Source: Pseudomonadota bacterium (GTDB lineage: Bacteria; Pseudomonadota; Gammaproteobacteria; Burkholderiales; Burkholderiaceae_C). From it: a stretch of DNA of 64,000 bases. Both the position numbers and the translations under genes were made by a program. Below, piece by piece: positions 35,002 through 59,891 of the stretch. The DNA is taken from the NCBI GenBank assembly GCA_040387435.1, contig JAZKDR010000019.1, positions 331-64,330 on the forward strand, written 5' to 3'. Position 1 is the stretch's first letter, and the number at the start of each line of letters is the position of its first letter. Under the pieces are notes generated by a model. The model saw only the letters and a program-made list of their open reading frames with translations. It was not told where the DNA came from and did not search any database.

Positions 35002-35037
35002 AGCTCTCAACCTATGCAGTTTTCAGGAAACTGCGTG

Positions 35038-36993: not shown

Positions 36994-37971
36994 CTATTTG
37001 GCATTCCCCGCCTTCATGAATTTGGCCCACTTCAGCTTTTCGGCGCTGTCGAAGGCCGGAAAATCCTCCTGGCGGCTGCTCGTCAAATCCATGCCCATGT
37101 CCATGATCTGCTTTTGTACGGCGGGGTTGGCCAGTGCCACGCGAACGGCGACGACAACTTTGGCCTGAATGCTTTTTGGCAATGCGACCGGCGCGTAAAG
37201 CGCGTACCACTGGGTGACGTCGTAGTCCTTGAAACCGCTCTCCGCCATGGTGGGCACATCAGGCAGCATGCTGGAACGCCGCGCACCCGTCACGGCCAGC
37301 GGCGTCAGCGCACCGGCTTTCACATGGGGCAGCGCTACCGGCATGCCTGCGGCCATGAAGTCGAAGTGCCCTCCGCGCAGGTCGGTGATGGCCAGCGACT
37401 CGCCCTTGTAGGCCACTTCAACGATCTTGATGCCCGTCTGGCGAACCAGCATGTCCCCGGAGATTTGCCCGGTGGAACCCGCCCCCATCGACGCCACGCT
37501 CAACCCCTCAGTCGCCTTTTTTGCGGTCTGCACCAGCGCCTTCATCGACTTCACAGGCGAGCTTGAATTCACCACGAACACATTGGACAACGACGCAAGA
37601 TGGATCAGTGGCACAAACTCGGCGGGCGAATAAGGAAGCTTGTTCTGCATGGCAGGGGCGATGCTCATGATGCCCGCGCTGCCGACAAACAGGGTGTAAC
37701 CGTCAGCCGGTGATTTGGCCACGTACTCGGCAGCAATGCTGCCTGCCGCACCCAGCTTGTTTTCGACAATGACGGGCTGCTTCCATTGCGTGTTCAGCTC
37801 CTGCGCCACCAGACGCGCCAGCAAATCGGGGCCACCGCCTGCGGCTTGCGCCACCACGATGCGGACGGGGCGCGACGGGTAGGCATCCTGCGCAGCAACG
37901 GCCAGCGGCCCGACGACAAGCGCGGCGGCCAGTGCAGCGCCTGAAAAGCGGGTGAGGTGTTTGTTCAGCAT
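36994..37971 (-). CDS. Bug-family (TctC-like) substrate-binding protein
   Basis: 325 aa with a signal peptide then YPSRPVRIVVAQAAGGGPDLLAR...ENKLGAAG. Confidence 0.88.
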   Translation of the reverse strand: MLNKHLTRFSGAALAAALVVGPLAVAAQDAYPSRPVRIVVAQAAGGGPDLLARLVAQELNTQWKQPVIVENKLGAAGSIAAEYVAKSPADGYTLFVGSAGIMSIAPAMQNKLPYSPAEFVPLIHLASLSNVFVVNSSSPVKSMKALVQTAKKATEGLSVASMGAGSTGQISGDMLVRQTGIKIVEVAYKGESLAITDLRGGHFDFMAAGMPVALPHVKAGALTPLAVTGARRSSMLPDVPTMAESGFKDYDVTQWYALYAPVALPKSIQAKVVVAVRVALANPAVQKQIMDMGMDLTSSRQEDFPAFDSAEKLKWAKFMKAGNAK

Positions 37972-39195: not shown

Positions 39196-40113
39196 TCAGG
39201 TCCCGTTGCGGCCCGACGGAGCTGACTGGCCTGGTGCGAACTCTCCCAGCAGCCAGTCCCGAAAGGCCAGCACCTTGCCGGACAGAACCCTTTCCTCCGG
39301 ATAGACCAGGTAATAGGCACCGGGGCCTTTCGCAGTCAGTGGCCACGGCTGCACCAGCCGGCCGGATTCCAGTTCCTTGACCACCATCTCGGGGTCGACC
39401 ACCGCCAGCCCCAGCCCGGCTTCAGCGGCCTCGATCACCAGGTTACGGCTCTCCAGCGTCAGCAGCCGCGGCGTGGCGTCCGGTGTCACGCCGGCTTTTT
39501 GCAGCCACAACTCCCAATCCTGCGGCCGCTGTTTGGCTTCCAGCAACTGATAGCCGTACACATCGTCATAACGCGCCAGTGGCCGTTGTGCGAGCACCGC
39601 AGGCGCGCACACCAGCACCAGGTATTCGTCACGCAAAAAATCTGCTGCCAGACCGCGCCACTGGCCATCACCATAAAACACGGCGCAGTCAACGTTGTCG
39701 TGGTCAAAATTGGCGTCCACGCGGGACACGCGGATTTCGGTGTTGGCGACCTGCGCCGGAAAGCGCGTGAAGCGCGGCAGCAACCAGCGTGAGGCGAACG
39801 TATGCAGCGCACTCACCACCAGCGCCTTGTCTTGCGCCGGGCCTGCGGCCTCACGCAGGGCCGCCGCAAGCGCGATGAGGCTTTCGTCCACGCGTGCGTG
39901 CAGCTTGCGGCCCACATCGGTGAACTGCAAACCCCGGCCGTTGCGCGCGAACAGCTTGGTGCCCAGCCGATCCTCCAGCTGACCCAGCTGGTGGCTGAGG
40001 GCCGATGCCGTCAGGTGCAGCTCTTCAGCCGCCCGCGCCAGGCTCAGATGTTTGCCGATGACCTGGAAGCTGCGCAGGTGGTTCAGCGGCGGTGTCGGCG
40101 TGCGGAAGGTCAT
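39196..40113 (-). CDS. LysR-family transcriptional regulator (GcvA-like)
   Basis: Start trimmed to the ATG at 40113: MTFRTPTPPLNHLRSFQVIGKHLSLARAAEELHLTASALSHQLGQLE. Confidence 0.85.
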   Translation of the reverse strand: MTFRTPTPPLNHLRSFQVIGKHLSLARAAEELHLTASALSHQLGQLEDRLGTKLFARNGRGLQFTDVGRKLHARVDESLIALAAALREAAGPAQDKALVVSALHTFASRWLLPRFTRFPAQVANTEIRVSRVDANFDHDNVDCAVFYGDGQWRGLAADFLRDEYLVLVCAPAVLAQRPLARYDDVYGYQLLEAKQRPQDWELWLQKAGVTPDATPRLLTLESRNLVIEAAEAGLGLAVVDPEMVVKELESGRLVQPWPLTAKGPGAYYLVYPEERVLSGKVLAFRDWLLGEFAPGQSAPSGRNGT

Positions 40114-40203
40114 AGCGCTGGATGATAGTGATGTCTTCCAGGCGGGTCTCAAAATTTTCAACACGGTGCGCCGCCAGGCACGCGAGGTCGGCAACGCGCT
40201 GGA

Positions 40204-46012: not shown

Positions 46013-46366
46013 TCAGCTGCCCCGGTAAGTGGAGTAGCTCCACGGGCTGACGAGCAGGGGCACGTGGTAATGCTGGGCGGTGTCGGCCACGCCGAAGTCG
46101 AGGCTGACCAGGTTGAGAAAAGCCGGCTCGGGCAAGGCGACACCGCAAGCGCGGAAATACGCAGCGACATCAAACACCAGCCGGTAATGGCCCGCCTTGA
46201 GGGTGGCGCTGTCGTAGAGCAGGCCGTCGGGGTTGCGGCCATCGGCGTTGAGCGTGAACTGTTTGACCAACGTGGCCTCGCCACCTTGTGTGGTGTACAG
46301 CGAGACCGCCATGCCGGCAGCAGGTTTGCCATGCATGGTGTCCAGTACGTGTGTGCTCAAGCCCAT
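46013..46366 (-). CDS. uraH: 5-hydroxyisourate hydrolase
   Basis: MGLSTHVLDTMHGKPAAG... with the C-terminal YRGS tetrapeptide diagnostic of HIU hydrolases. Start at 46366 sits 5 nt after AAGGA. Confidence 0.92.
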   Translation of the reverse strand: MGLSTHVLDTMHGKPAAGMAVSLYTTQGGEATLVKQFTLNADGRNPDGLLYDSATLKAGHYRLVFDVAAYFRACGVALPEPAFLNLVSLDFGVADTAQHYHVPLLVSPWSYSTYRGS

Positions 46367-46439
46367 GGCCATCCTTTTTGAAATGCTGCTGCGGCGGCGC
46401 GAGGTCCATCACCCCGAATGCCCCGTTTTCGGTTCACTG

Positions 46440-46481: not shown

Positions 46482-47174
46482 ATGCAATCTTCCGCCGCAG
46501 CCGTTGCCGCCTCCGCCAACCCCACCCATGCGATCGTCGAGGCCCTGACCAGGGCCATCGTCGAGCACCGGCTGCACCCCGGCACCAAGCTGGCAGAACA
46601 AAAACTGGCCGACCATTTCGGCGTCTCGCGCACGCTGGTCCGCCAGGCCCTTTTCCAGCTGTCGCAAAACCGCCTGATACGACTGGAGCCGGCACGCGGT
46701 GCCTTCGTCGCCGCGCCGTCGGTGATCGAGGCGCGCCAGGTGTTTGCGGTGCGCCGCATGCTGGAAGCGGAAATGACGCGCGCCTTTGTACGCGAGGTCA
46801 CCCCCGCGAAGATCAAGGCACTGAAAGACCATGTCGCCAAAGAAAAAGCTGCAGTGGCGCGCGACGATGCGGCCAGCCGTACCGAACTGCTTGGCGATTT
46901 CCATGTCCGCATGGCCGAGCTCATGGGCAATGAAGTGCTGGCGCAATTGCTGGGCGAGCTGATTTCGCGCTGCGCCCTCATTACCCTGATGTACCAGACC
47001 GCCAGCGCCGCAGAACATTCTGCCGACGAGCATTCCGGCATCATCCGCGCCATGGCTGCCAGGGACGAAGCCCTTGCCGTGCAACTGATGACCGAGCACC
47101 TGCTCAGCGTCGAAAAGAACCTTGCTTTTGACCGCAAGGTACCGAGCAACGATTTGTCGATGGCGCTGTCATGA
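46482..47174 (+). CDS. GntR-family (FadR/FCD subfamily) transcriptional regulator
   Basis: Start trimmed to the ATG at 46482. The wHTH is LAEQKLADHFGVSRTLVRQALFQLSQNRLIRLEPARGAFV, followed by an FCD-like C-terminal domain. An ATGA overlap couples it to puuE. Confidence 0.85.
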   Translation: MQSSAAAVAASANPTHAIVEALTRAIVEHRLHPGTKLAEQKLADHFGVSRTLVRQALFQLSQNRLIRLEPARGAFVAAPSVIEARQVFAVRRMLEAEMTRAFVREVTPAKIKALKDHVAKEKAAVARDDAASRTELLGDFHVRMAELMGNEVLAQLLGELISRCALITLMYQTASAAEHSADEHSGIIRAMAARDEALAVQLMTEHLLSVEKNLAFDRKVPSNDLSMALS

Positions 47175-48124
47175 GCTCAAGCTATCCACGGGATCTCGCA
47201 GGTTACGGCCGACATGTGCCACATGCGCAGTGGCCCGGCAAGGCACGCATCGCGGTGCAGTTCGTACTGAATTACGAAGAAGGCGGGGAGAACTCTGTGC
47301 TGCACGGCGATGCAGGATCGGAGCAGTTTCTCTCGGAGATGTTCAACCCGCCATCGTTTGCCGACCGCCACCTGAGCATGGAGAGCATTTACGAATACGG
47401 CTCGCGTGCCGGTGTCTGGCGCATCTTGCGCGAGTTCGAGAAACGCAAACTACCGCTGACGGTGTTTGGCGTCGGCATGGCCTTGCAACGCCAGCCCGAC
47501 GTGACGGCCGCCTTTGTCGAACTCGGCCATGAAATTGCCTGCCACGGCTGGCGCTGGATCAACTACCAGCAGATCGATGAAGCCACCGAGCGCGAACACA
47601 TGCGCCTGGGCCTGGACGCCATTGAGAAACTGACGGGCAACCGCCCGCTCGGCTGGTACACCGGTCGCGACAGCCCCAACACACGCCGGCTGGTCGCAGA
47701 TGACGGCCACCTGGTCTACGACAGTGATTACTACGGCGACGACCTGCCCTTCTGGACGGACGTGCAGCGCACCGACGGTGTGGTGGTGCCAAGGCTTATC
47801 GTGCCCTATGCGATGGACACCAACGACATGCGCTTCTCGCTGCCGCAGGGTTTCTCGCAGGGCGATGATTTCTTCACCTACCTGAAGGGCAGCTTTGACG
47901 CACTTTATGCGGAAGGCTCACCCGATGGCGAAGACAGGCCCAAAATGCTCAGCATAGGCATGCACTGCCGGCTGCTGGGCAGGCCCGGCCGCATCGTTGC
48001 GCTGCAGCGTTTTCTCGACCATGTCGAAAAACATTCCCACATTTGGGTATGCCGTCGTATCGAGATCGCCAGGCATTGGGAGAAAACACATCCCCCTTCA
48101 ACACCTGGCGGAGGCCGGACATGA
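47171..48124 (+). CDS. puuE: Allantoinase PuuE (polysaccharide-deacetylase fold)
   Basis: 317 aa with YPRDLAGYG...WPG.ARIAVQFVLNYEEGGENSVLHGD, the PuuE hallmark. Confidence 0.9.
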   Translation: MSSSYPRDLAGYGRHVPHAQWPGKARIAVQFVLNYEEGGENSVLHGDAGSEQFLSEMFNPPSFADRHLSMESIYEYGSRAGVWRILREFEKRKLPLTVFGVGMALQRQPDVTAAFVELGHEIACHGWRWINYQQIDEATEREHMRLGLDAIEKLTGNRPLGWYTGRDSPNTRRLVADDGHLVYDSDYYGDDLPFWTDVQRTDGVVVPRLIVPYAMDTNDMRFSLPQGFSQGDDFFTYLKGSFDALYAEGSPDGEDRPKMLSIGMHCRLLGRPGRIVALQRFLDHVEKHSHIWVCRRIEIARHWEKTHPPSTPGGGRT

Positions 48125-49905
48125 GCATCACCCTCGACCAGGTCAACCAGGCCTCTCATGCCGAAGCGCTGCAGTTGCTCGACGGCCTGTATGAACACTC
48201 GCCGTGGATTGCCGACAAGGCCTTGCACCAACGCCCCTTTGGTTCACTGGCCCAACTCAAACATGAAATGGTGCGGGTGCTCGGAGAAGCCGGCCGCGAT
48301 GCGCAGGTCGCGCTCATCCGGGTCCACCCCGAACTGGCCGGCAAGGCCATGGTCAGCCAGAGCCTGACGACGGAATCGACCCACGAGCAGAAAACCGCCG
48401 GCCTCACGCAGTGCTCGCCAGACGAGCTGGCTAAGATCCAGCGCCTGAACCGCGAATACGACGCGAAATTCGGCTTCCCTTTTGTGCTGGCTGTGCGCGG
48501 CACGCGCGGCAGCGGCCTGACCAAGCAGCAGATCATGGCCACTTTTGTGCGCCGCCTGAACAACCACCCCGACTTCGAATTGCAGGAATGCCTGCGCAAC
48601 ATTCACCGCATTGTCGAATTGCGCCTCAACGACAAGTTCGGCGTGCACCCGGACACGGGAAACGACGTGTGGGACTGGCACGAAGGCCTCGCGCAGTACA
48701 GCGACCCTGGCTACCTTGAGAAAGGCCAGCTCACGGTGACCTACCTGACGGACGCACACCGCGCCTGCGCCGCCTTCATTTCAAAGACTATGCACGAGTG
48801 CGGTTTTGATGAGGTGCGCATCGACGCCGTGGGCAATGTCGTCGGCATTTACATAGCCGAAAAAGCTGGCGCTAAAACCCTGCTCACCGGCAGCCATTAC
48901 GACACCGTGCGCAACGGCGGCAAATACGACGGCCGGCTGGGCATCTTCACACCCATGGCCTGCGTGCGCGAACTGCACCGCCAGGGCCGCCGCCTGCCCT
49001 TCAACCTGGAAGTGGTCGGCTTTGCCGAAGAAGAAGGCCAGCGTTACAAGGCGACCTTTCTCGGCTCGGGCGCACTGGTGGGCGACTTCAAACCCGAGTG
49101 GCTGGACCAGAAGGACGCTGACGGCATCACCATGCGTGACGCGATGGCCCATGCCGGCATGAACCCCGCGGACATTGCAGGCATCAAACGCGAGGCCGAC
49201 AACTATCTTGGTTTTGTCGAAGTGCACATCGAGCAGGGTCCGGTCCTCAACGAGCTGGGCTTGCCGCTCGGCATCGTGACCTCCATCAATGGCAGCGTGC
49301 GTTACCTGTGCGAGATCACCGGCGTCGCCAGCCACGCAGGCACCACACCCATGAACCGTCGGCGCGACGCGGCCAGCGCGGCCGCCGAACTGGCGCTCTA
49401 CCTCGAAAAACGCGCCGCACAGGACAGCGACTCTGTCGGCACCATGGGCATGCTGCAGGTGCCCAACGGCTCCATCAACGTGGTGCCGGGCCGTTGTCTG
49501 TTTTCACTCGACATGCGCGCGCCGCTCGACACACAGCGCGATGCCATGGCCGCCGATGTTCTCAGGGAACTGAATGCCATCTGCGAACGCCGCGGCGTGC
49601 AGCTCACACTGGAGCTGACCGAAAAGGCAGCCGCCGCGCCCAGCCACCCGGCCTGGCAGGCGCGCTGGGAAGCGGCCGTGCGTGCCCTCAACCTGCCGAT
49701 TTTTGCCATGCCCAGTGGCGCCGGCCACGACGCCATGAAGATCCACAAGATCATGCCGCAGTCCATGCTGTTTGTGCGCGGCCAGAACTCCGGCATCAGC
49801 CACAACCCGCTTGAAAGCACGACCAGCGACGACATCCAGCTCGCGGTCGATGCCTTCCGGTTTTTACTGGGCAGCCTCGCCACAGAAGTCAGCAAAGCTC
49901 AATGA
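48121..49905 (+). CDS. uraD-allC: Bifunctional OHCU decarboxylase / allantoate amidohydrolase (M20) fusion protein
   Basis: Start at the ATG at 48121 (MSITLDQVNQAS), with an ATGA overlap on puuE. The N-terminal ~175 aa are UraD-like (HPELAGK...FPFVLAVRG). The remaining ~415 aa are an M20 amidohydrolase (GSHYDTVRNGGKYDG, EEEG, HAGTTPM). Confidence 0.85.
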   Translation: MSITLDQVNQASHAEALQLLDGLYEHSPWIADKALHQRPFGSLAQLKHEMVRVLGEAGRDAQVALIRVHPELAGKAMVSQSLTTESTHEQKTAGLTQCSPDELAKIQRLNREYDAKFGFPFVLAVRGTRGSGLTKQQIMATFVRRLNNHPDFELQECLRNIHRIVELRLNDKFGVHPDTGNDVWDWHEGLAQYSDPGYLEKGQLTVTYLTDAHRACAAFISKTMHECGFDEVRIDAVGNVVGIYIAEKAGAKTLLTGSHYDTVRNGGKYDGRLGIFTPMACVRELHRQGRRLPFNLEVVGFAEEEGQRYKATFLGSGALVGDFKPEWLDQKDADGITMRDAMAHAGMNPADIAGIKREADNYLGFVEVHIEQGPVLNELGLPLGIVTSINGSVRYLCEITGVASHAGTTPMNRRRDAASAAAELALYLEKRAAQDSDSVGTMGMLQVPNGSINVVPGRCLFSLDMRAPLDTQRDAMAADVLRELNAICERRGVQLTLELTEKAAAAPSHPAWQARWEAAVRALNLPIFAMPSGAGHDAMKIHKIMPQSMLFVRGQNSGISHNPLESTTSDDIQLAVDAFRFLLGSLATEVSKAQ

Positions 49906-51364: not shown

Positions 51365-52420
51365 ATGACCAAGACCACCGCATCCCCCTTTTCGCTGCTG
51401 CCTCTGGCCGCCAAGGTCGCCGGCGCATTCGTCGTCGCTGCCGCCTTCACCACGGCCCATGCGCAAAACACGCCCATCAAGTTCCAGCTCGACTGGCGCT
51501 TTGAAGGCCCCGCCGCGCTGTTCCTGACGCCGGTCGCCAAAGGCTATTTCAAGGACAACAAGCTCGACGTCACGGTGGATGCCGGCAACGGCTCCGGCGG
51601 CGCCGTCACGCGTGTGGCGTCCGGCACCTATGACATGGGTTTTGCCGACCTCGCGGCCCTGATGGAATTCCACGCCAACAACCCCGATGCGCCCAACAAG
51701 CCCGTCGCCGTGATGATGGTCTACAACAACACGCCCGCCTCCGTGATGGCGCTGAAGAAGTCCGGCATCACCAAGCCGTCCGACCTCAACGGCAAGAAGA
51801 TGGGGGCACCGGTGTTCGACGCCGGTCGCCGCGCTTTCCCGATCTTCGCCAAGGCCAACAAGATTTCCGGCTTCACCTGGACGGCCATGGACCCCCCGCT
51901 GCGCGAAACCATGCTGGCCCGCGGTGACATCGACGCCATCACCGGTTTCACCTTCACCTCGCTCCTCAACCTCGAAGCCCGCGGCGTCAAGGCCGAAGAC
52001 GTCGTGGTGCTGCCTTATGCAGACTTCGGCGTGAAGCACTACGGCAATGCCGTCATCGTGTCGCCCAAGCTCATCAAGGAAAATCCGGCCGCCATCAAGG
52101 CCTTCCTGCTGGCCTTCACCAAGGGCATGAAGGACGTCGTGACCGACCCGGCTGCCGTTATCGCCTACGTGAAAGAGCGTGACGGCATCATCAACGTGCC
52201 GCTCGAGACCCGCCGCCTGAAGCTGGCCATCGACACCGTCATCAACAGCCCTGATGCCCGCGCGGAAGGTTTTGGCCAGGTCAAGGGTCCGCGCCTGTCG
52301 CTCATGGCCTCGGAAGTGTCGGACGCCTTCAACACCAAGACCCGCGTGAACCCTGAAGCAGTCTGGAACGGTACCTTCCTGCCAACGACAGCCCAGCTCA
52401 ACGTCCTGCCAAAAAAATAA
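51365..52420 (+). CDS. ABC transporter substrate-binding protein, NMT1/THI5-like (NitT/TauT family)
   Basis: 351 aa with a signal peptide then IKFQLDWRFEGPAALFLTPVAKGYFKD, typical of NMT1-like SBPs. Confidence 0.85.
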   Translation: MTKTTASPFSLLPLAAKVAGAFVVAAAFTTAHAQNTPIKFQLDWRFEGPAALFLTPVAKGYFKDNKLDVTVDAGNGSGGAVTRVASGTYDMGFADLAALMEFHANNPDAPNKPVAVMMVYNNTPASVMALKKSGITKPSDLNGKKMGAPVFDAGRRAFPIFAKANKISGFTWTAMDPPLRETMLARGDIDAITGFTFTSLLNLEARGVKAEDVVVLPYADFGVKHYGNAVIVSPKLIKENPAAIKAFLLAFTKGMKDVVTDPAAVIAYVKERDGIINVPLETRRLKLAIDTVINSPDARAEGFGQVKGPRLSLMASEVSDAFNTKTRVNPEAVWNGTFLPTTAQLNVLPKK

Positions 52421-52454
52421 GCCGGGACATTTCACCTCTTCAGCCCCCCACTTC

Positions 52455-53282
52455 ATGACTACCCCCACTGACCTGCCGCTGTTCGTCGATTTTTCCGACG
52501 TCTGGCTCGCCTACAACGAAGAGCTGCTCGCGCAGCAGAAATTTGCGGTCGAAGCCATCGACATGAAAGTCCGGCAAGGCGAATTCATCGCCATCGTCGG
52601 GCCTTCAGGTTGCGGCAAGTCAACCTTCATGAAGCTGGCCACGGGCCTGAAGATGCCATCCAGGGGCCACATCATCATCGACGGGCGCGAAGTCAACGGC
52701 CCGCTCAAGATATCGGGCATGGCTTTCCAGGCCCCGTCGCTGCTGCCCTGGCGCACGACGCTGGACAACGTGCTGTTGCCGCTGGAAATCGTGGAACCCT
52801 ACCGCAGCAGTTTTCGCGAGAAGAAAAAGGAATACGCCGAGCGTGCCCGCAAACTTTTGCAGAGCGTCGGCCTGGGCGGCTACGAGGACAAGTTTCCCTG
52901 GCAGCTGTCGGGCGGCATGCAGCAGCGAGCCAGCATTTGCCGTGCGCTTATCCATGAACCCAAGATGCTGCTGCTGGACGAGCCCTTCGGCGCGCTGGAC
53001 GCCTTCACGCGTGAAGAACTCTGGTGCACGCTGCGCGACCTCTGGACGGTGCAGAAATTCAACGTCATCCTGGTCACGCACGACCTGCGCGAATCGGTCT
53101 TCCTGGCCGACACCGTGTATGTCATGAGCAAGAGCCCTGGCCGCTTCGTCGTCAAACGCCAGATCGAGTTGCCGCGCCCGCGTGACCTGGAAGTCACTTA
53201 CACCAAAGAATTCAGCGACATCGTGCATGAACTGCGGGGCCATATAGGCGCCATACGCCAGACCACTGCCGTACCAGCCTGA
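52455..53282 (+). CDS. ABC transporter ATP-binding protein (NitT/TauT family)
   Basis: 275 aa with Walker A GPSGCGKST, signature LSGGMQQR and Walker B LLLDEP. Confidence 0.92.
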   Translation: MTTPTDLPLFVDFSDVWLAYNEELLAQQKFAVEAIDMKVRQGEFIAIVGPSGCGKSTFMKLATGLKMPSRGHIIIDGREVNGPLKISGMAFQAPSLLPWRTTLDNVLLPLEIVEPYRSSFREKKKEYAERARKLLQSVGLGGYEDKFPWQLSGGMQQRASICRALIHEPKMLLLDEPFGALDAFTREELWCTLRDLWTVQKFNVILVTHDLRESVFLADTVYVMSKSPGRFVVKRQIELPRPRDLEVTYTKEFSDIVHELRGHIGAIRQTTAVPA

Positions 53283-53293
53283 AGAGCCTTCAC

Positions 53294-54061
53294 ATGAACA
53301 AAAAACAACTCGAACGCTGGGCGCCCTGGGCATTGCTGGTCGCCGTCATCGCCATCTGGCAATTCATCTGCGCGGCTTTCAGCGTCTCCGAATTCATCTT
53401 CCCCAGCCCATGGCGCATTGCCGAGCAGACCTGGGAGTTCAAATGGGTGATCCTGGGCCACGCCTGGCGCACGTACTGGGTCACCATGGCCGGCTTCGGC
53501 CTGGCCATCGTGATCGGGGTCATGCTGGGCTTTGTGGTGGGCTCGTCCCGCCTGGCTTATGCCGCCGTTTACCCCTTGATGACAGCCTTCAACGCCCTGC
53601 CCAAGGCGGCGTTTGTGCCCATTCTGGTGGTCTGGTTCGGCATCGGCATCGGTCCGGCCATCCTGACGGCTTTCCTGATCTCCTTCTTTCCCATCATGGT
53701 CAACATCGCCACCGGCCTGGCGACGCTGGAACCTGAACTCGAAGACGTGTTGCGCGTGCTGGGCGCCAAACGCTGGGACGTGCTCATCAAGGTGGGCCTG
53801 CCACGCTCGATGCCCTACTTTTACGGCTCGCTGAAGGTCGCCATCACGCTGGCGTTCGTCGGCACCACCGTGTCGGAGATGACGGCTGCCAATGAAGGTA
53901 TCGGCTACCTGCTGATCTCTGCAGGTTCTGCGATGCAGATGGGTCTGGCGTTCAGCGGTCTGGTCGTCGTGGGCGCCATGGCTATGGTGATGTACGAGCT
54001 CTTCAGCTACATCGAGAAGAACACCACCGCCTGGGCCCACCGCGGTTCGCAGGGCGAGTGA
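53294..54061 (+). CDS. ABC transporter permease (NitT/TauT family)
   Basis: 255 aa with about six TM segments and an EAA-like loop (LEDVLRVLGAKRWDVLIKVGLP). Confidence 0.9.
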   Translation: MNKKQLERWAPWALLVAVIAIWQFICAAFSVSEFIFPSPWRIAEQTWEFKWVILGHAWRTYWVTMAGFGLAIVIGVMLGFVVGSSRLAYAAVYPLMTAFNALPKAAFVPILVVWFGIGIGPAILTAFLISFFPIMVNIATGLATLEPELEDVLRVLGAKRWDVLIKVGLPRSMPYFYGSLKVAITLAFVGTTVSEMTAANEGIGYLLISAGSAMQMGLAFSGLVVVGAMAMVMYELFSYIEKNTTAWAHRGSQGE

Positions 54062-54170: not shown

Positions 54171-55214
54171 CTAGCCGTGGATTTCCGATTCGCCGCTTCG
54201 GGCCAGCATCTCCATCAGCTTGCGCCGTATCAGGATGCCAGGCCTGTCCGAGTCCATTGAAAACTCGACGCCCCGCCGGCGCAGGTCGACCACGGCATCG
54301 GGGTCTGTGGATTCCAGGATGTCCTTGTCCTCGCGCGTGATCTCCGCATCGAAGTCGATCAGCATCTGCGCCGGGCAATCGGCTTCGGTGTCATTGCGAA
54401 ACAGCCACTGGCACAGCTGCATGTTGCCGTCGTCTATGGGCGTGAAGCAGTTGATGATGATGTGCCGTATGCCCGAGGGGTACTCGATGTCCAGCCGACG
54501 CGAGAAGGGCAGGAAATAGGCGTTGCGCATGTGGCGCGTGGTGATGGGCTCACGCACACCGCTGATGCGCTGGTAGCGCTCGGGGTTGGCCGCATCGATC
54601 ACGGTTTCCGCATAAAAGCCGGTGTCGTTTTCAACCAGTTCGTACTTGCTCGGTTTGGGACTGGCGGCCACACCAAAAGTGGCGCGATGCACAAAGCTGA
54701 AATGCGAGTTGTCGAATGAGTTCTCCAGCGCACGCATCGGGCTGGTCTGCCAGCGCTCGTAAAACTGGAAGATGGTGCGGTAGGCCGGGTCCGAAAATTC
54801 CGGAATGTCGGGGATGTCCGCTATCGGCTCTTCCAGTGCGACCCATGCGTAACCGTAACGTGCCATGCAGTGGTAGGACGTCGTCTTGTAGTCCGGCATG
54901 ATGGTCCTGCCGGCCTCGTATTGCGGAATCACAACGACCTGCCCACTGCGGTCATAGGTCCAGCCGTGGTAGCCGCACTGGATGCGGCCCTGCCCGCAAG
55001 CCTTGCCCTCCGTGTCGACACACCAGCCTTTGGAAAGACGGGCCGTGCGGTGGCAACAACGGTCGCGCAGTGCTGCGGGCTGCCCGTCGGCATCAAGGAA
55101 CAGTACGATGTTTTCACCGAGCAGGGTGAAGGGTTTGGGCCCCGCAGACAGGTCGGCCAGCGGCATGACGGCGTGCCAGTGTTTGCGAAGTACGGGTTGT
55201 TGGGTTACCAGCAT
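54171..55214 (-). CDS. Rieske [2Fe-2S] non-heme-iron oxygenase alpha subunit-like protein
   Basis: Start trimmed to the ATG at 55214 (MLVTQQPVLRKHWHAV). Rieske motif CCHRTARL...CGYHGWTY with a C-terminal catalytic domain. No reductase or ferredoxin gene is adjacent. Confidence 0.85.
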   Translation of the reverse strand: MLVTQQPVLRKHWHAVMPLADLSAGPKPFTLLGENIVLFLDADGQPAALRDRCCHRTARLSKGWCVDTEGKACGQGRIQCGYHGWTYDRSGQVVVIPQYEAGRTIMPDYKTTSYHCMARYGYAWVALEEPIADIPDIPEFSDPAYRTIFQFYERWQTSPMRALENSFDNSHFSFVHRATFGVAASPKPSKYELVENDTGFYAETVIDAANPERYQRISGVREPITTRHMRNAYFLPFSRRLDIEYPSGIRHIIINCFTPIDDGNMQLCQWLFRNDTEADCPAQMLIDFDAEITREDKDILESTDPDAVVDLRRRGVEFSMDSDRPGILIRRKLMEMLARSGESEIHG

Positions 55215-55239
55215 TGAAGCGCTCCTTGAGTGGAAATAA

Positions 55240-55295
55240 CAGGAGCAATTTCCGGCCGGCACTGTGCTTGTGCCGGCTGAACGCTTCTACTCCGC
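55240..55295 (-). promoter_or_regulatory. Structured leader copy 1, candidate NMT1-motif (xanthine/urate) riboswitch
   Basis: RNA sense: GGAG-UAGAAGCGUUCA-GCCGGCAC(aagcaca)GUGCCGGC-CGGAAAUUG-CUCC. The loop sequences are identical in all three copies while the helices differ but stay paired. Followed by AUUUCCACUCAAGGAGCGCUUCAAUG. Confidence 0.6.
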
Positions 55296-55333
55296 GGGGG
55301 GATTTTAACAATGAACATAAAAAATAGATGTCG

Positions 55334-56365
55334 TCAGTTTGAGGCGTGGGTTTTGAGATGCATGGCACGCAGGTGTTCACCCACCGTGCACGACTCAAAA
55401 GCCGATACGCCATCGGTGAGGCAGGTGGCCACCGGCTGCACCAGCGCCTCGTAATCGGGGTTGTAGAAAAAAGGGATGGAGTGCCTGGGTTTGCCGCCGC
55501 TGAACACATTGCGCACGCGGTGTGGATTGGAGTGGTAACGCCCATTGGTCCAGCGCGGAATCATGTCACCCAGATTGACCACCAGGCTTGCGGGAATGGG
55601 CGGTGCCGGGACCCAGCTCCCGTCAGGCATGCTGACCTCCAGCCCGCCATGGCTGTCCTGCGCAAGGATGGTGATGGCGCCCCAGTCTGTGTGCGCGCCC
55701 GCACCAAAGGTCTTGCCATCGGCATTCACGGGTTGTGGCGGGTAACGCAGGAAACGCAGCGTCACCATGGGTGAGTCATGCATGCCGTCGAAGTAGTCTT
55801 CCGGCAAGTCAAGGGACAAGGCCATCAGCTGCATCAGGCGCACCGCAAGCCGGGACATCAGCGCTATGTAGGACGACGAATTTTCCGCGAGTCCCGGCAA
55901 CCCATCCGGCCACTGGTTCATGCCGTAGGTGTGGTGCTTGCGAACGACGTAGGGGTGATGGGCCGGGTAGTCGATGCCGCAGTAAAAACTTTCCTTGAGG
56001 TCGGGCAGCGCATCGGCGTCGAGCGTTTGTGCACCCAGCGCCTCGTAGCCCCTTGAGCAGGAGGAGTGCCTGGTGGCAACAGCATCCTTAAGGTCTGCGG
56101 AGAGATCGAACAGCTGCGCCACCCCCTTGAACTGGCGGTCGATCACATCCTGGGCGATGCCATGGTGGGTGACATAGAAAAACCCAGCGGCTTGCGCAGC
56201 AGCACGCATGCCTGCTGCCACTTCTGCGCAGCGCGGCCCGCCGGGTTCCAGTGCGTCCGACAAGTCAATGACGGGAATTTTCAGGTCACTTCCGCTATCG
56301 GATAAGGCGACGGCGGATGGTGTTCGATTGAAAACAGGCTTTGTGGCCTGGGTGGCGGTCAGCAT
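55334..56365 (-). CDS. 2-oxoglutarate/Fe(II)-dependent oxygenase (isopenicillin-N-synthase-like family)
   Basis: 343 aa with an N-terminal DIOX_N-like IPVIDLS...GFFYVTHHGI and a C-terminal H.D...H facial triad region (GAHTDWGAITIL ... HRV). Confidence 0.82.
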   Translation of the reverse strand: MLTATQATKPVFNRTPSAVALSDSGSDLKIPVIDLSDALEPGGPRCAEVAAGMRAAAQAAGFFYVTHHGIAQDVIDRQFKGVAQLFDLSADLKDAVATRHSSCSRGYEALGAQTLDADALPDLKESFYCGIDYPAHHPYVVRKHHTYGMNQWPDGLPGLAENSSSYIALMSRLAVRLMQLMALSLDLPEDYFDGMHDSPMVTLRFLRYPPQPVNADGKTFGAGAHTDWGAITILAQDSHGGLEVSMPDGSWVPAPPIPASLVVNLGDMIPRWTNGRYHSNPHRVRNVFSGGKPRHSIPFFYNPDYEALVQPVATCLTDGVSAFESCTVGEHLRAMHLKTHASN

Positions 56366-56387
56366 GAAGCGCTCCTTGAGTGGAAAT

Positions 56388-56443
56388 CAAGAGCAATTTC
56401 CGACTTGCACCGTTGCGGTGCAGGTTGAACGCTTCTACCCTTG
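56388..56443 (-). promoter_or_regulatory. Structured leader copy 2, candidate NMT1-motif (xanthine/urate) riboswitch
   Basis: RNA sense: CAAGGG-UAGAAGCGUUCA-ACCUGCACCG(caa)CGGUGCAAGU-CGGAAAUUG-CUCUUG, followed by AUUUCCACUCAAGGAGCGCUUCAUG. Confidence 0.6.
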
Positions 56444-56456
56444 TCCATGGATCAGC

Positions 56457-56473
56457 AGCAAATTTCGCGCCAA
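56457..56473 (-). promoter_or_regulatory. sigma54 (-24/-12) promoter reading into leader copy 2 and the 2OG oxygenase
   Basis: Minus strand TTGGCGC-gaaat-TTGCT has GG-N10-GC spacing. The predicted start site falls at about 56446, just before the first helix of the leader (56443). Confidence 0.65.
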
Positions 56474-56577
56474 TTTGGCCACCAGTCCAACATGGAACAC
56501 CCACGCATCCCGACATTCGACATATGTATTTAGGCAATTTCCCTAGAAGCACCTCGACCATCGTGCGGCAGCAGGAA

Positions 56578-56594
56578 TTGGCACGCGAAATGCA
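56578..56594 (+). promoter_or_regulatory. sigma54 (-24/-12) promoter reading into leader copy 3 and the SBP-deaminase operon
   Basis: TTGGCAC-gcgaa-ATGCA has GG-N10-GC spacing. The predicted start site at about 56604 coincides with the first helix of the leader (56605). Confidence 0.6.
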
Positions 56595-56604
56595 TCACCT
56601 GTCG

Positions 56605-56663
56605 CAAGAGTAGAAGCGTTCAGCCCCCATGCACCAGCCTGGGTCGCCCGGAAATTGCTCTTG
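56605..56663 (+). promoter_or_regulatory. Structured leader copy 3, candidate NMT1-motif (xanthine/urate) riboswitch
   Basis: CAAGAG-UAGAAGCGUUCA-GC.CCCA(ugcaccagcc)UGGG..GC-CCGGAAAUUG-CUCUUG. The second helix is interrupted by a small internal loop. The SBP start codon lies 75 nt downstream. Confidence 0.55.
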
Positions 56664-56737
56664 AACCCGTCCTGCCTGTAGACGTTGCAACGCACGTTCA
56701 CTGGCCGGTGTTTTCAAGTGTTCTTACCGGAGTCGAC

Positions 56738-57775
56738 ATGAACCGTCTTCTTAAACGGCGAGTATTCCTCGCATCCCTCGCTTCCGCCTCCACCCTCGCC
56801 GCACCTGCCGTCTGGAGCCAGTCCACCCGCCTGACACCCGTCAAATTCACGCTGGACTTTCGCGTGACCGGCCAGACATCACCTTTCTTTCTCGCGCAAA
56901 GCAGGGGTTACTACAAGGACGAAGGCCTGGACGTCACCATTGATGTGGGTGCAGGCTCTGTCACCTCCATCACCCGCATTGCCAGCGGTGTCTACCAGAT
57001 GGGTCTGGGCGACATCAGCTCGCTCGTCGAGTTCAATGCACAGAACCCGGGGACACCCTTGGTGCAGGCGGTGTACCAGTACTACAACCGCGCACCCTTT
57101 GTCATCATCGGCCGCAAGGACCGCGGCATCACCAGCGATTTCCGTAGCCTGGAAGGCAAAAAGATTGCAGCCGCAGCGGTTGAATCGACACGCAGAAGCT
57201 GGCCGATGGTGGCACGCAAGCTGCGTCTGAAACCAGATCTTTTCGCCTGGTCTACCACCGATTTCAGCGCGCGTGACAACGTGGTGGTGCGCGGCGATGT
57301 TGATGGTGCAACTTACTTCCATGACTCCGCCGTCTCGCTCTTTGCGCGCATGAAGCAGGACGACCTCGCTGTGCTGCAGTACTCCGATGCAGGTGTCAAC
57401 CTCTATGGCAATGCAATTCTTGCCAGCAGCAACCTGATCGCGCAGAACCCCAAGGTCGTCGCGGCCTTCCTGCGGGCCACCAACCGCGCCATCGTCGAAA
57501 CATTTGCCAACCCTGCAGCGGCCATTGCGGCCACCCGCCAGCGCGAGCCCATCCTAGACGAAAAGGTGGAGCTGGAACGCTGGCGCGTGACGTCCCAGTA
57601 CGTAGGCGCAGCCGACACGCGCGGACATGGAATCGGCGACGTCCGCAAACTTCTCATCGAGCAGCAGGTCGACGAGGTGGTGGATGTGTATGGCCTGAAG
57701 ACGCGTCCCAGCGCAGATGGCCTCTTCAACCTGTCCATGCTGCCGGCAAAAGCAGACCGCATGCTGAAGGCCTGA
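56738..57775 (+). CDS. NMT1/THI5-like (NitT/TauT family) substrate-binding protein, orphan (no adjacent permease or ATPase)
   Basis: ATG at 56738 sits 5 nt after GGAG. MNRLLKRRVFLASLASASTLAAPAVWSQ is a signal peptide, possibly Tat-type (RR). Then VKFTLDFRVTGQTSPFFLAQSRGYYKDEGLD. Confidence 0.82.
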   Translation: MNRLLKRRVFLASLASASTLAAPAVWSQSTRLTPVKFTLDFRVTGQTSPFFLAQSRGYYKDEGLDVTIDVGAGSVTSITRIASGVYQMGLGDISSLVEFNAQNPGTPLVQAVYQYYNRAPFVIIGRKDRGITSDFRSLEGKKIAAAAVESTRRSWPMVARKLRLKPDLFAWSTTDFSARDNVVVRGDVDGATYFHDSAVSLFARMKQDDLAVLQYSDAGVNLYGNAILASSNLIAQNPKVVAAFLRATNRAIVETFANPAAAIAATRQREPILDEKVELERWRVTSQYVGAADTRGHGIGDVRKLLIEQQVDEVVDVYGLKTRPSADGLFNLSMLPAKADRMLKA

Positions 57776-57777
57776 GC

Positions 57778-58272
57778 ATGGACAGCACGACACAGCTCAA
57801 TGCGCGCGATGCCGGCTATATGGCCCAGGCCATTGCCTGGTCCCGTACGGCACGGGAACGCGGCAACCGGCCGTTTGGTGCCGTCATCGTTTCAGCCGAA
57901 GGCCAGCTCCTCACGGAGGCCTACGCCAACTCGGTCGAAACCGGCGACTGCACGGGCCATGCAGAGACCAATGCCGTACGGCAGGCCTCCAGCACGATAG
58001 GCCGGCAAACACTGCAGGCGGCGACGCTGTATTCATCGGCCGAGCCCTGCGTGATGTGCGCCGGTGCCATCTTCTGGTCGGGCATAGGCCGTGTGGTGTT
58101 CGGCATCGATGCAGTCAGCCTGCGTGTATTTCGCGGTGAGCCTGCCGAGCAGCGCGACGTTGAACTGTCATGCCGCGACGTGTTTGCCGCCTCACCACAC
58201 GCAATTGAATGCATAGGGCCGGTAATGGTGGCCGAGGCCAGCGAGCCGCACCTGGGCTTCTGGAAGAGCTGA
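57778..58272 (+). CDS. CDA-fold (CMP/dCMP-type zinc) nucleobase deaminase, small guanine-deaminase-like
   Basis: 164 aa with PFGAVIV, HAETNAV and EPCVMCAGAI zinc motifs. Its size and motifs resemble the small Bacillus-type guanine deaminase. It starts 3 nt after the SBP stop. Confidence 0.75.
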   Translation: MDSTTQLNARDAGYMAQAIAWSRTARERGNRPFGAVIVSAEGQLLTEAYANSVETGDCTGHAETNAVRQASSTIGRQTLQAATLYSSAEPCVMCAGAIFWSGIGRVVFGIDAVSLRVFRGEPAEQRDVELSCRDVFAASPHAIECIGPVMVAEASEPHLGFWKS

Positions 58273-58308: not shown

Positions 58309-59139
58309 ATGCCTTGGCACGCACAACTTGACCTTGACTACCGCATGGAAGCGGGCCGCAGCGTGGCCCGTCACAGCCACAATGGCCCCCTGCGCATACT
58401 GCAAAGCCTCTACCCCGAAGGTGACGCCATCTGCCACAACGTGTTGGTGCACCCGCCCGGAGGCTTGGTGGGCGGCGATACGCTGGACATCGGTGTGCGC
58501 GTGGGGAAAGACGCGCACGGCCTGCTCACCACGCCCGGGGCAGCGCGGTTTTACAGGTCAGACGGCGAACTGGCGCTACAGAGAACAGCCATCACCCTGG
58601 ATGCCGGCGCCCGGCTGGAATGGTTGCCGCTGGAGGCACTGTGTTACAGCAACTGCCTGGCCGAAAACCGGCTGAGCATGACGCTGGCACCGGGCGCGGA
58701 ATTGCTCGGCTGGGATGTCACGGCATTGGGTTTGCCGGCCGCCGATAAACCGTTCGACGCTGGCGTCTTCTCCCAGCACATCGAGGTACCCGGCCTGTGG
58801 CTGGAGCGCGCGCACATCAGGGCCACTGACGGGCTGTTGATGAACGGCCCGCTGGGTTTGGCCGGCCACCGTTGCGTGGCCACCCTGTTCTTCGTCAGCG
58901 GGACAAAGCTGGACCGCCAGCGCCGCCAGTCGGCACTCGACATTGCCCGGGGCGTGATTGAGGCCCATCCCCTGCGCGTAACCGCCGGGGCCACCAGCCC
59001 GGAAGGTCAGGTCGTCCTGGTACGTGCGCTGGCACCTGTGGTTGAACCGGCAATGGGCCTGTTGCGTGACATATGGCAGGCCTGGCGCACCGAACTCTGG
59101 GCGCTACCGCCCTCCAGCCCGCGCATCTGGTCAACCTAG
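58309..59139 (+). CDS. ureD: Urease accessory protein UreD
   Basis: 276 aa with LVHPPGGLVGGD, a TTPGAARFYRS region and a C-terminal PRIWST, typical of UreD. No ureABC/EFG genes follow. Confidence 0.88.
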   Translation: MPWHAQLDLDYRMEAGRSVARHSHNGPLRILQSLYPEGDAICHNVLVHPPGGLVGGDTLDIGVRVGKDAHGLLTTPGAARFYRSDGELALQRTAITLDAGARLEWLPLEALCYSNCLAENRLSMTLAPGAELLGWDVTALGLPAADKPFDAGVFSQHIEVPGLWLERAHIRATDGLLMNGPLGLAGHRCVATLFFVSGTKLDRQRRQSALDIARGVIEAHPLRVTAGATSPEGQVVLVRALAPVVEPAMGLLRDIWQAWRTELWALPPSSPRIWST

Positions 59140-59306: not shown

Positions 59307-59795
59307 ATGAATGCAGGCAAACAGTTCAAGTTCAACAGCATCGCAAAGGGCGCTGCAGGGTTTGTTTTCACCGCCATGCTGGCCATGACCGCTGCCACCG
59401 CGCAAGTCGCCTCTGGCACCACCGGTATCGATGCCACCGGCAATGCGCAAAGCGAAGCGGCTGCTTGTAACTCGGGCCGCACCCAGCAGGATCGAGATAC
59501 GTGCTTGCGCGAAGTGCGCAATGCCAATGCAGAAAAACGTGCCGGCAAGCTTGACAATGCAGGCGCGCAGTTCAACGCCAATGCCGTGCAGCGTTGCAAT
59601 GCGCTGACGGGTGAAGACAAGATTGCCTGTGAAGCCCGCATCGTGGGCTATGGCAACACCCAGGGAAGTGTCGCCGGCGGCGGTGTGATCCGCGAAGTCG
59701 AGACAGTGGTCATGCCCAAGGACGCGACCAATGTGGTGATCAAGCCGCAGACCGCGACCGATGCAATTATTGTGATTCCTGCTAAAGAGCAGTGA
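59307..59795 (+). CDS. Hypothetical secreted Cys-containing protein
   Basis: ATG at 59307 sits 7 nt after AAGGAG, followed by a signal peptide (AAGFVFTAMLAMTAATAQV). Four Cys residues. I recognise no family. Confidence 0.6.
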   Translation: MNAGKQFKFNSIAKGAAGFVFTAMLAMTAATAQVASGTTGIDATGNAQSEAAACNSGRTQQDRDTCLREVRNANAEKRAGKLDNAGAQFNANAVQRCNALTGEDKIACEARIVGYGNTQGSVAGGGVIREVETVVMPKDATNVVIKPQTATDAIIVIPAKEQ

Positions 59796-59863
59796 TCATG
59801 CCGTCTGCTTAAAACCCCGCTTGCTGGCGTGATGAACGCTACAGATGGGGCTATGCAGTGAAG

Positions 59864-59891
59864 CCGCCAGGACCATCCTGGCGGTTTTTTT
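59864..59891 (+). terminator. Rho-independent terminator
   Basis: ccgccagga-cca-tcctggcgg followed by ttttttt. Confidence 0.8.

Follow-up and report, generated by a model that had tools for sequence, protein, structure and literature searches.

We analysed a stretch of 64,000 nucleotides from a Burkholderiales genome (assembly GCA_040387435.1, contig JAZKDR010000019.1; hereafter the window), in which three xanthine riboswitches of the NMT1 class precede a Rieske non-heme-iron oxygenase gene, a 2-oxoglutarate (2OG)/Fe(II) oxygenase gene and, divergently, a gene for a periplasmic binding protein followed by a small deaminase gene. The locus is a rediscovery of the published xanthine-riboswitch regulon, whose gene association has been known since 2020. 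New here are its conserved core, the adjacent ATP-binding cassette (ABC) translocator, the accessory status of the module, the resemblance of its deaminase to the mycobacterial enzyme Msd together with the replacement of this deaminase elsewhere, and a Rieske relative fused to a Fer2 domain. The explanation we lean towards, tentatively and somewhat short of even confidence, is that the module takes up non-canonical purines and turns them into xanthine or urate, as an accessory feeder of a complete purine-to-urea island.

Rfam gives exactly three matches in the window, all of them to RF03054 (xanthine riboswitch, NMT1 RNA; gathering score 36 bits), and these, with the Pfam matches, agree with the four genes and three leaders that the original prediction, made from the DNA letters, had placed here. 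The starts it had chosen at 55214 and 56738 are also correct: longer open reading frames (ORFs) would overlap the aptamers, and both starts have a Shine-Dalgarno (SD) sequence. For all three leaders the distance from aptamer to start is 20-72 nt, each start having its SD. The locus reads as follows, SBP denoting a periplasmic binding protein.

51365..52420, + strand: SBP2, NMT1-family periplasmic binding protein, first gene of an ABC importer operon (Pfam NMT1 6.4e-30)
52455..53282, + strand: ABC ATPase of the taurine/nitrate/sulfonate type (Pfam ABC_tran 2.2e-31)
53294..54061, + strand: ABC permease (Pfam BPD_transp_1 7e-24)
54171..55214, - strand: Rieske non-heme-iron monooxygenase, VanA-type alpha subunit (Pfam Rieske and VanA_C; VanA_C 4.6e-19)
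55238..55297, - strand: xanthine riboswitch aptamer 1, Rieske leader (RF03054, 55.1 bits, E 1.6e-9)
55334..56365, - strand: 2OG/Fe(II) oxygenase, 'IPNS-like' (Pfam DIOX_N and 2OG-FeII_Oxy, PF14226 and PF03171; 5.9e-26 and 6.3e-25)
56386..56445, - strand: xanthine riboswitch aptamer 2, 2OG leader (RF03054, 45.2 bits, E 9e-7)
56603..56665, + strand: xanthine riboswitch aptamer 3, SBP1 leader, divergent from aptamer 2 (RF03054, 52.4 bits, E 9.1e-9)
56738..57775, + strand: SBP1, NMT1/ThiY-family periplasmic binding protein (Pfam NMT1 1e-32)
57778..58272, + strand: CDA-fold zinc deaminase, 164 aa (Pfam dCMP_cyt_deam_1 2.2e-23)
58309..59139, + strand: ureD, urease accessory gene (Pfam UreD 3e-45)
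59310-59795, + strand: orfX, small protein with a signal peptide and without Pfam match, predicted to be secreted
59860..59888, + strand: intrinsic-terminator-like hairpin, 13 bp then a T run (consensus scan only)

The J1-2a (GAAGCGU) and J2a-1 core of the P1/P2a/P2b fold is invariant across the three window aptamers. A covariance model made from them recovered 115 aptamers from the window and 80 related loci together, and over these leaders the fold covaries: pairing holds in 92.8% of cells, each of the 7 P2b pairs has changed on both sides, and none of 500 shuffles reached the observed values for paired cells, cells changed on both sides or covariation score.

The NMT1 motif is said to go back to Weinberg in 2017, ahead of the gene-association account of Yu and Breaker. 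RNAs of this class bind xanthine (~4 uM), urate and 8-azaxanthine in vitro, and reject N1-, N3- and N7-methylxanthine as well as thiamin- and histidine-related compounds (Yu & Breaker, RNA 2020, PMC7373994). The genes associated with them encode pcbC-like 2OG dioxygenases, NMT1/tauA binding proteins, hcaE-like Rieske oxygenases and tadA-like deaminases, and further Tsx and amidohydrolases resembling 8-oxoguanine and guanine deaminases; the same authors proposed, by analogy with Klebsiella HpxDE, that the dioxygenases act on purines, and stated that the exact enzyme functions in the regulon are not established (PMC7373994). Our literature search found no later biochemical characterisation of the riboswitch-associated oxygenases, in agreement with what the original prediction had said of their role. 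Its description of the locus as an uncharacterised purine oxidation or modification module stands in the purine link (riboswitch ligands, purine island) and in that the enzymes are, in the searchable literature, still uncharacterised; the novelty it implied does not, given the 2020 account. It had considered neither the HpxDE precedent nor the sign of regulation.

The conserved core of the regulon

Searching genomes with the Rieske protein gave at least 516 relatives, of which the best 80 (76-88% identical; loci L001-L080) are all from Burkholderiales, mostly Comamonadaceae. An aptamer lies upstream of 61 of 79 Rieske orthologues (within 200 nt) and just upstream of 45 of 46 SBP1 orthologues (within 250 nt). 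Among neighbouring families in the 80 loci, SBP-family proteins (SBP1, SBP2 and SBP3 together) count 54, CDA-family proteins (CDA and CDA') 48, the ATPase 39 and the permease 36, while UreD lies near the deaminase, on the same strand, in 46. The recurrent order is ureD <- CDA <- SBP1 <- [aptamer] [aptamer] -> Rieske, often with CDA' <- permease <- ATPase <- SBP2 a few kb off. The conserved Comamonadaceae core, newly described here, is thus a riboswitch-SBP1-CDA(-ureD) unit divergent from a riboswitch-Rieske unit. Rieske genes without an aptamer of their own often trail CDA' or an SBP3-2OG pair in an operon. CDA' is a second CDA-fold deaminase paralogue (~35% identical) that ends the SBP2-ATPase-permease operon in most related genomes; it is missing in the window, where the ends of the permease and Rieske genes are just 110 bp apart.

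The closest published locus is that of Hydrogenophaga intermedia S1, from whose SBP leader Yu and Breaker took their reporter (PMC7373994). This locus (L060) is orthologous to ours, with Rieske, SBP1 and CDA proteins 78%, 75% and 73% identical, respectively, and shares with it the aptamer family, the gene types and the divergent riboswitch pair. The window differs in having the 2OG gene, with a third aptamer, between the divergent leaders, and in lacking both the usual SBP3 partner and CDA'. The Rieske gene, the steadiest partner of SBP1-CDA in this family, is given no prominence in the figure legend of the published account (PMC7373994).

Does the 2OG oxygenase belong to this core? The original prediction had proposed that co-occurrence of all four protein families with the leader be examined across genomes; over the 80 loci Rieske, SBP1 and CDA recur together, and the 2OG oxygenase has the Rieske gene as a neighbour in no more than about 6-7, usually as [aptamer]-SBP3-2OG. 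The window order, with 2OG between the divergent leaders and behind its own aptamer, recurs in one close relative (L081). The 2OG gene is therefore a variable add-on, outside the conserved core. The platforms of the Rieske and 2OG genes (55214-55260 and 56365-56408, - strand) are near base-for-base identical, AUUUCCACUCAAGGAGCGCUUCA(A)UG, which suggests that the 2OG gene was inserted along with a duplicated Rieske-type leader. A different arrangement occurs in Cupriavidus (L083/L084, 5314-9445), where a 2OG gene and a Tat-exported NMT1 SBP gene diverge from a pair of aptamers, the SBP gene being followed by a second 2OG gene and a glyoxalase-fold protein; no purine genes or ABC membrane components lie near this pair.

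A pattern scan of metagenomes gave 99 aptamers. The first gene after them is SBP1-like in 32 cases, Rieske in 17, 2OG in 14, SBP2/3-like in 9 and tauA-like in several, some of the tauA-like genes also matching SBP1 weakly, as in L088 (24% identity).

On the other side of the core, the deaminase gene begins 2 nt after the end of the SBP1 gene, to which it is probably translationally coupled, and ureD follows on the same strand 36 nt downstream, possibly co-transcribed. The hairpin at 59860-59888 is, by consensus scan, the only strong terminator-like site on the + strand there and the first after the deaminase; it would close an SBP1-CDA-ureD-orfX transcription unit. We rejected orfX as a member of the module, since it is conserved in only 2 of the 80 loci. 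The ureD gene at 58309-59139 is solitary, without ureABCEFG, and its placement may couple urease maturation to the operon that the xanthine riboswitch controls. Genes of the urea ABC transporter converge on this unit from the far side.

Binding proteins, deaminase and oxygenases

The binding protein had been taken for an orphan. It is not one: a paralogous SBP2, an ABC ATPase and a permease sit at 51365-54061, directly upstream of the module and 2.7 kb from SBP1, and this set is syntenic in 36-39 of the 80 loci. SBP1 and SBP2 share 37% identity along their full length; judged from the translations, SBP1 has a twin-arginine-like signal (MNRLLKRRVFLA..., KRRVFLA) and SBP2 a Sec signal peptide. 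No riboswitch lies upstream of SBP2. The best NCBIfam matches of the ATPase are TauB-like and SaoA-like, every one below cutoff. The permease is probably a membrane component shared by SBP1 and SBP2.

Relatives of SBP1 in the PDB are THI5/THI13 and 4nmy, and the protein matches the SsuA/TauA NCBIfam models weakly, below threshold. ThiY/THI5 (NMT1) and SsuA/TauA binding proteins belong to the same fold family, are periplasmic and ABC-linked, and ThiY binds a pyrimidine heterocycle. Unlike them, SBP1 is under xanthine-riboswitch control and paired with nucleobase deaminases or oxygenases, and its ligand is presumably a purine. Could it instead bind a thiamin pyrimidine or a sulfonate, with the oxygenases acting on aromatic or sulfonate compounds? 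The pointers in this direction are the family names only (NMT1/THI5) and the sub-threshold SsuA/TauA matches, whereas the riboswitch class binds xanthine and urate and rejects thiamin- and histidine-related compounds (PMC7373994), the module lies inside a purine-catabolism and urease island, and the SBP is paired with nucleobase-type deaminases of two unrelated folds. We consider a non-purine module very improbable, and rejected a thiamin or sulfonate role for the NMT1 protein on riboswitch specificity and gene context.

The deaminase retains the zinc and proton-shuttle motifs of the CDA superfamily (HAE...PCVMC), and GHAETN and EPCVMC are invariant in 22 homologues. A TadA assignment was rejected, the protein scoring 79.4 bits against the NCBIfam equivalog cutoff of 150 and its C-terminal 50 residues being unaligned to TadA. 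The CDA-fold guanine deaminase of Bacillus subtilis (1wkq) is a sequence match at 1e-14, over residues 30-108 only. We searched with an AlphaFold2 (AF2) model of the deaminase (pLDDT 88) using Foldseek: ranks 1-10 are Msd/Msmeg3575, with TM of 0.73-0.77 over the full length of the model, while TadA, guanosine deaminase and NE0047 (47th) come further down and the top 50 do not include B. subtilis GuaD. Deamination of isoguanine yields xanthine. Msd of Mycobacterium smegmatis (Msmeg3575; isoguanine, 5-azacytosine, ammeline) acts on free bases and has the same HAE/PCxxC zinc site as the window deaminase, which is only 25-30% identical to it. The substrates of Msd include isoguanine and 5-azacytosine; on guanine and cytosine it does not act (PMC11963756). 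The window enzyme is a CDA-fold zinc deaminase, predicted to act on a free base; it is not a TadA equivalog and probably not the canonical guanine deaminase, and the structural model points to the Msd-like substrate class.

This deaminase has a counterpart of another fold. Among the metagenome loci, the gene after an SBP1-like first gene encodes a CDA deaminase 22 times and a PRK12393 amidohydrolase 7 times (L087, at 65-1462 on the - strand, L088, L092, L109, L117, L138 and L149). PRK12393 is the NCBIfam family closest to 8-oxoguanine deaminase. In L087 the SBP is a 77%-identical SBP1 orthologue; in at least one other, L088, it is a distant tauA-like SBP (24% identical). On these sequences, PRK12393 in place of CDA appears to be a non-orthologous replacement of the same step, with SBP and deaminase forming a putative functional unit.

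In the Rieske protein the cluster ligands CCH...CGYH are intact (DRCCHRTA, CGYHGW), and the mononuclear iron site NSHFSFVHR, with a conserved acidic REDKDILES region, aligns with segments of NdmA/B and SxtT. It is a VanA-type, alpha-only (class IA) oxygenase: it has a VanA_C domain, and no small-subunit gene is conserved nearby in the 80 loci. A PDB sequence search gave near full-length matches to SxtT (7.9e-30), GxtA (3.2e-29) and NdmA/B (~1e-27), at about 28-30% identity over the full length, and by sequence the protein groups in the subfamily that contains these four. The subfamily is small (154 clusters at E<=1e-30), and ten representatives 37-51% identical all bear generic names. NdmA/NdmB of Pseudomonas putida CBB5 and the cyanobacterial SxtT/GxtA share with the window enzyme the alpha-only VanA-type architecture and themselves act on purine-like substrates; they catalyse demethylation and hydroxylation, respectively, and the window enzyme may do either.

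Where is its reductase? The original prediction had noted that none is adjacent, and indeed no FNR/PDR-type reductase is found among the window ORFs scanned. Nor did clustering of all ORFs reveal an FNR/PDR reductase conserved within 10 kb across the 80 loci; the families it returned were malic enzyme, OsmC, TctC, Lrp, D-amino-acid dehydrogenase, flavodoxin-like and creatininase. Unlike the Ndm system, the window enzyme has no NdmCDE-type partners nearby. A relative of 672 aa, P0241, has its Rieske and VanA_C domains in residues 1-336, where it is 59% identical to the window protein, and ends in a C-terminal plant-type 2Fe-2S (Fer2) domain, the stretch between VanA_C and Fer2 matching no Pfam family. 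This fusion points to a VanB/PDR-type reductase as partner of the Rieske protein, presumably encoded elsewhere in the genome.

The 2OG/Fe(II) oxygenase has an intact iron triad HTD...H and RHS motif (GAHTDWG, PHRV, RHSIPFF). Its PDB matches are 9ovh (1.6e-60) and 6jyv (5.5e-53), both uncharacterised, and thymine dioxygenase (2e-35), and the nucleobase oxygenase thymine-7-hydroxylase belongs to the same family. Fungal XanA, a 2OG/Fe(II) xanthine dioxygenase, acts in purine catabolism beside a molybdenum hydroxylase; Aspergillus nidulans keeps both. XanA is of the TauD family, whereas the window enzyme is of the IPNS/flavonoid-oxygenase type, so that the likeness is one of analogy only; membership of the XanA/TauD family was rejected, there being no TauD (PF02668) match, only DIOX_N and 2OG-FeII_Oxy.

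The purine island and candidate substrates

The original prediction had stated that the canonical purine route is encoded elsewhere in the window, and this proved right: XdhAB, XdhC, PuuD, HIU hydrolase (HIUase), PuuE and OHCU decarboxylase/allantoate amidohydrolase are all encoded, besides a guanine deaminase and an adenosine deaminase.

4986-6278, - strand: canonical amidohydrolase-type guanine deaminase, GuaD (TIGR02967, 471 bits against a cutoff of 375)
9741-10790: adenosine deaminase, Add
16722-20617: XdhAB
33772-35010: membrane urate oxidase PuuD
35232-36104: XdhC
46013-46372: HIUase
47171-48124: allantoinase PuuE
48043-49905, + strand: OHCU decarboxylase fused to allantoate amidohydrolase (M20 domain), a single ORF

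The fusion ORF at 48043-49905 scores 981 bits with NCBIfam PRK13799 ('fusion protein'), just below the cutoff of 1087, and the fusion is kept in related loci. A second M20 hydrolase also lies within the island. The genome is one of Comamonadaceae, the closest relatives being Polaromonas, Variovorax, Rhodoferax and Hydrogenophaga. The Add gene and a Bmp-type nucleoside ABC importer span 9741-15699. GuaD (4986-6278, - strand) adjoins queD-like (PTPS) and radical-SAM (queE-like) genes (6342-7508, - strand), apart from the riboswitch module. A second VanA-type Rieske oxygenase, at 38033-39085 (- strand), is 28% identical to the riboswitch-linked one in the N-terminal half only; it is flanked by a TctC-family receptor and a LysR regulator (36994-37971 and 39196-40194, both - strand), with no riboswitch and no adjacent reductase.

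Since GuaD, Add and XdhAB are already in the island, the riboswitch module is accessory to it, and with the substrates of these enzymes already served, the likely substrates of the module are non-canonical: oxidised purines such as isoguanine or 8-oxoguanine, N-methylated purines or aza-bases. In the feeder scheme, the Tat-exported SBP1, of the NMT1/ThiY family, would capture a purine base in the periplasm and pass it to the adjoining SBP2-ATPase-permease importer. The co-translated CDA-fold deaminase would then strip an exocyclic amino group, and the Rieske monooxygenase, with a VanB/PDR-type reductase from elsewhere, would carry out oxidative steps (ring hydroxylation or N-demethylation), to which the 2OG/Fe(II) oxygenase would add others in this lineage. 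The resulting xanthine or urate would be degraded by XdhAB, PuuD, HIUase, OHCU decarboxylase, PuuE and allantoate amidohydrolase. The xanthine/urate aptamer of each unit would act on translation initiation, the products turning the feeders off in a negative feedback, as in the published reporter. Gene and riboswitch identities, catalytic motifs, synteny and the canonical enzymes are observed; substrates, translocator sharing, reductase identity and sign of regulation are inferred, and the feeder reading as a whole comes from relatives of 25-30% identity and from context. A route for modified purines was one of the two alternatives of the original prediction, and it gains indirect support from the presence of GuaD, Add and Xdh, from the Msd-like deaminase fold, from the 8-oxoguanine-deaminase relative that replaces it and from the likeness of the Rieske protein to NdmA/B and SxtT.

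A narrower version is that the module salvages methylpurines: SBP1 would import N-methylated purines that come from plants or are set free as RNA and DNA turn over, the deaminase would turn methylguanines into methylxanthines, and the Ndm-like Rieske and 2OG enzymes would N-demethylate these to xanthine. NdmA/NdmB are indeed among the closest solved Rieske relatives, O-demethylases are among the PDB relatives of the 2OG family, and canonical GuaD and Xdh are already encoded. Moreover, the aptamer rejects N1-, N3- and N7-methylxanthine (PMC7373994), which would keep product and substrate distinct. Yet identity to NdmA/B is below ~30% and the hydroxylases SxtT/GxtA score slightly higher; the 80 loci have no conserved neighbour that resembles the NdmD reductase or NdmE or that detoxifies formaldehyde; and the best structural match of the deaminase favours isoguanine and aza-bases over methylguanines. 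We regard methylpurine salvage as improbable.

Klebsiella HpxDE, attributed to de la Riva in 2008, is reportedly a two-component Rieske hypoxanthine/xanthine hydroxylase. As proposed for the window enzyme, the Rieske oxygenase of HpxDE serves to break down purines, either alongside a molybdenum hydroxylase or in its place, and it requires a reductase of the FNR/ferredoxin type; the window differs in having no adjacent reductase gene, a riboswitch rather than a protein regulator, and an XDH in the same genome. On this model the module would duplicate the canonical route, the deaminase being a second guanine deaminase and the Rieske protein an HpxD-type hypoxanthine-to-xanthine hydroxylase, useful for example under molybdenum limitation, with product feedback. 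This accords with the BLAST similarity of associated dioxygenases to hpxD/hpxE noted by Yu and Breaker (PMC7373994), with the detectable B. subtilis relative of the deaminase and with the riboswitch ligand being the product of both reactions. It is at odds with the structural ranking of the deaminase, in which B. subtilis GuaD falls outside the top 50 and NE0047 comes 47th, and with the lack of an adjacent HpxE-like reductase; moreover, two SBPs, two CDA paralogues and two oxygenases for substrates already served would be unparsimonious. We hold this redundancy to be just as improbable as methylpurine salvage.

The sign of regulation

Do xanthine and urate turn these genes off or on? The sign decides whether they are products or substrates of the oxygenases. 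The class was called OFF after an A-to-U change in the pocket of the SBP-type leader from H. intermedia gave more lacZ than wild type in E. coli, in a comparison of wild type with point mutant for one leader, without ligand titration (PMC7373994).

In the window, J1-2a (GUAGAAGCGUUC) is complementary to the SD, spacer and AUG of the Rieske and 2OG genes, forming predicted duplexes of 9-13 bp at -17.0 and -18.6 kcal/mol, and a second element, AUUUCC, pairs with the aptamer's GGAAAU. The minimum-free-energy fold of both oxygenase leaders sequesters the SD in a 9-bp helix with J1-2a. Start regions complementary to the invariant core (J1-2a GAAGCGUUC and GGAAAU) are found in the window at 55214-55305 (-), 56365-56453 (-) and 56595-56760 (+), and in L001-L080 and L085-L164. 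This suggests a different design, in which the Rieske and 2OG leaders, possibly all three, would be ON switches: without ligand, J1-2a and GGAAAU would pair with SD-spacer-AUG and AUUUCC, and ligand would lock the aptamer and free the ribosome site. The oxygenases would then be molybdenum-independent xanthine or urate hydroxylases beside XDH, like XanA or HpxDE, and in a variant the SBP1-CDA unit may be feedback-repressed while the oxygenases are induced.

We measured the free energy needed to open positions -15 to +10 around the start codon, in the unconstrained ensemble (free) and with the aptamer locked, with the following results (kcal/mol).

62 Rieske leaders: free 12.9, locked 7.5, mean change -5.5; more than 2 kcal/mol easier in 58/62
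44 SBP1 leaders: free 12.3, locked 7.9, mean change -4.4
Window Rieske / 2OG / SBP1 leaders: free 14.2 / 12.9 / 17.0, locked 7.5 / 6.1 / 8.7, change -6.7 / -6.9 / -8.3
Dinucleotide-shuffled tails: change -0.1 to -0.9 (sd ~1.6)
Metagenome Rieske leaders: free 13.4, locked 7.5, mean change -5.9; below -2 in 16/17
Vibrio vulnificus add, known ON: free 8.2, locked 3.9, change -4.4
E. coli thiM, known OFF: free 11.1, locked 12.7, change +1.6
Published H. intermedia leader or construct: free 11.2-11.7, locked 10.0-10.1, change -1.2 to -1.6

Taken at face value, the window leaders look like ON switches in this model, opposite to the published OFF. The metagenome Rieske leaders repeat the effect; they share a syntenic lineage with the genome set and are not independent evidence, and the analysed leaders as a whole are largely orthologous, so that their counts are not independent either. 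The tested H. intermedia leader shifts little. We considered whether the M4 mutant result could reflect loss of the alternative pairing under an ON model; the folding model gives this no support, as it does not predict that M4 opens the start region, and the published experiment therefore stands for the H. intermedia leader, with the metric unvalidated in this class. In the model, moreover, locking the aptamer costs 10-16 kcal/mol in stability relative to the free ensemble, and switching would need to be under kinetic control. Two other measures, the mean probability that the start region is unpaired and the pairing probability of the SD by itself, were ambiguous as ON/OFF indicators, the latter also for the window leaders, and were replaced by the opening energy. 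Comparing duplex energies with natural control starts is a weak test, as the controls are dominated by ureD and GC-rich sequences pair promiscuously.

The leaders may not all have the same sign. On locking, the SD core becomes more accessible in 28 of 62 Rieske leaders and less so in 3; among 43 SBP leaders it becomes more accessible in 1 and less so in 7, and these modelled counts hint at a split in sign between the two types. In many SBP leaders a locked aptamer leaves the SD (CGAGG) able to pair with codons 7-8 (CCUCG), a three-element OFF design. That the published call comes from a single leader of the SBP type speaks for ON oxygenase leaders, as does the presence of XanA beside the molybdenum hydroxylase in A. 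nidulans; an induced SBP1-CDA unit would also better explain the ureD that follows it. We rate ON or split regulation as rather unlikely overall, and see slightly less likelihood in its push-pull form, in which rising xanthine and urate would throttle SBP1-CDA and switch on the Rieske and 2OG enzymes that consume them, the published 'OFF' being incomplete. A molybdenum-independent hydroxylation, the other alternative of the original prediction, fits only with ON oxygenase leaders, and so has the folding analysis on its side and the published reporter against it.

How does the feeder scheme fare in view of this? Several points weigh against it. Locking the aptamer cuts the cost of opening the start by 5-8 kcal/mol, compared with 0-1 for shuffled tails, which argues for ON regulation of at least the Rieske and 2OG leaders, and the metric gives the right sign for add (ON) and thiM (OFF), the only two control riboswitches. 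UreD is needed during purine degradation, and its position directly after SBP1-CDA makes repression by xanthine counter-intuitive. The Rieske protein and the deaminase are only 25-30% identical to NdmA/B, SxtT and Msd. Finally, the HpxD similarity reported by Yu and Breaker would point to canonical hypoxanthine and xanthine substrates (PMC7373994). Our working explanation of the feeder remains the feedback model as published, and we give substantial weight to ON or split regulation of the oxygenase leaders.

Six years after the discovery of the ligand, these are enzymes of a validated riboswitch class without a known reaction. The locus offers a test bed for them, with the canonical enzymes alongside and three separately gated units, and P0241, if it is a self-sufficient reductase fusion, is a possible way past the missing-reductase problem. 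The OFF sign appears to rest on a single mutant comparison, and folding gives a quantitative reason to re-test it; if the push-pull arrangement is true, the two enzymes would be the first xanthine or urate oxygenases in bacteria that do without molybdenum and are induced through a riboswitch. In either case, the reactions, once identified, would extend bacterial purine catabolism, to damaged or modified purines or to a molybdenum-independent route.

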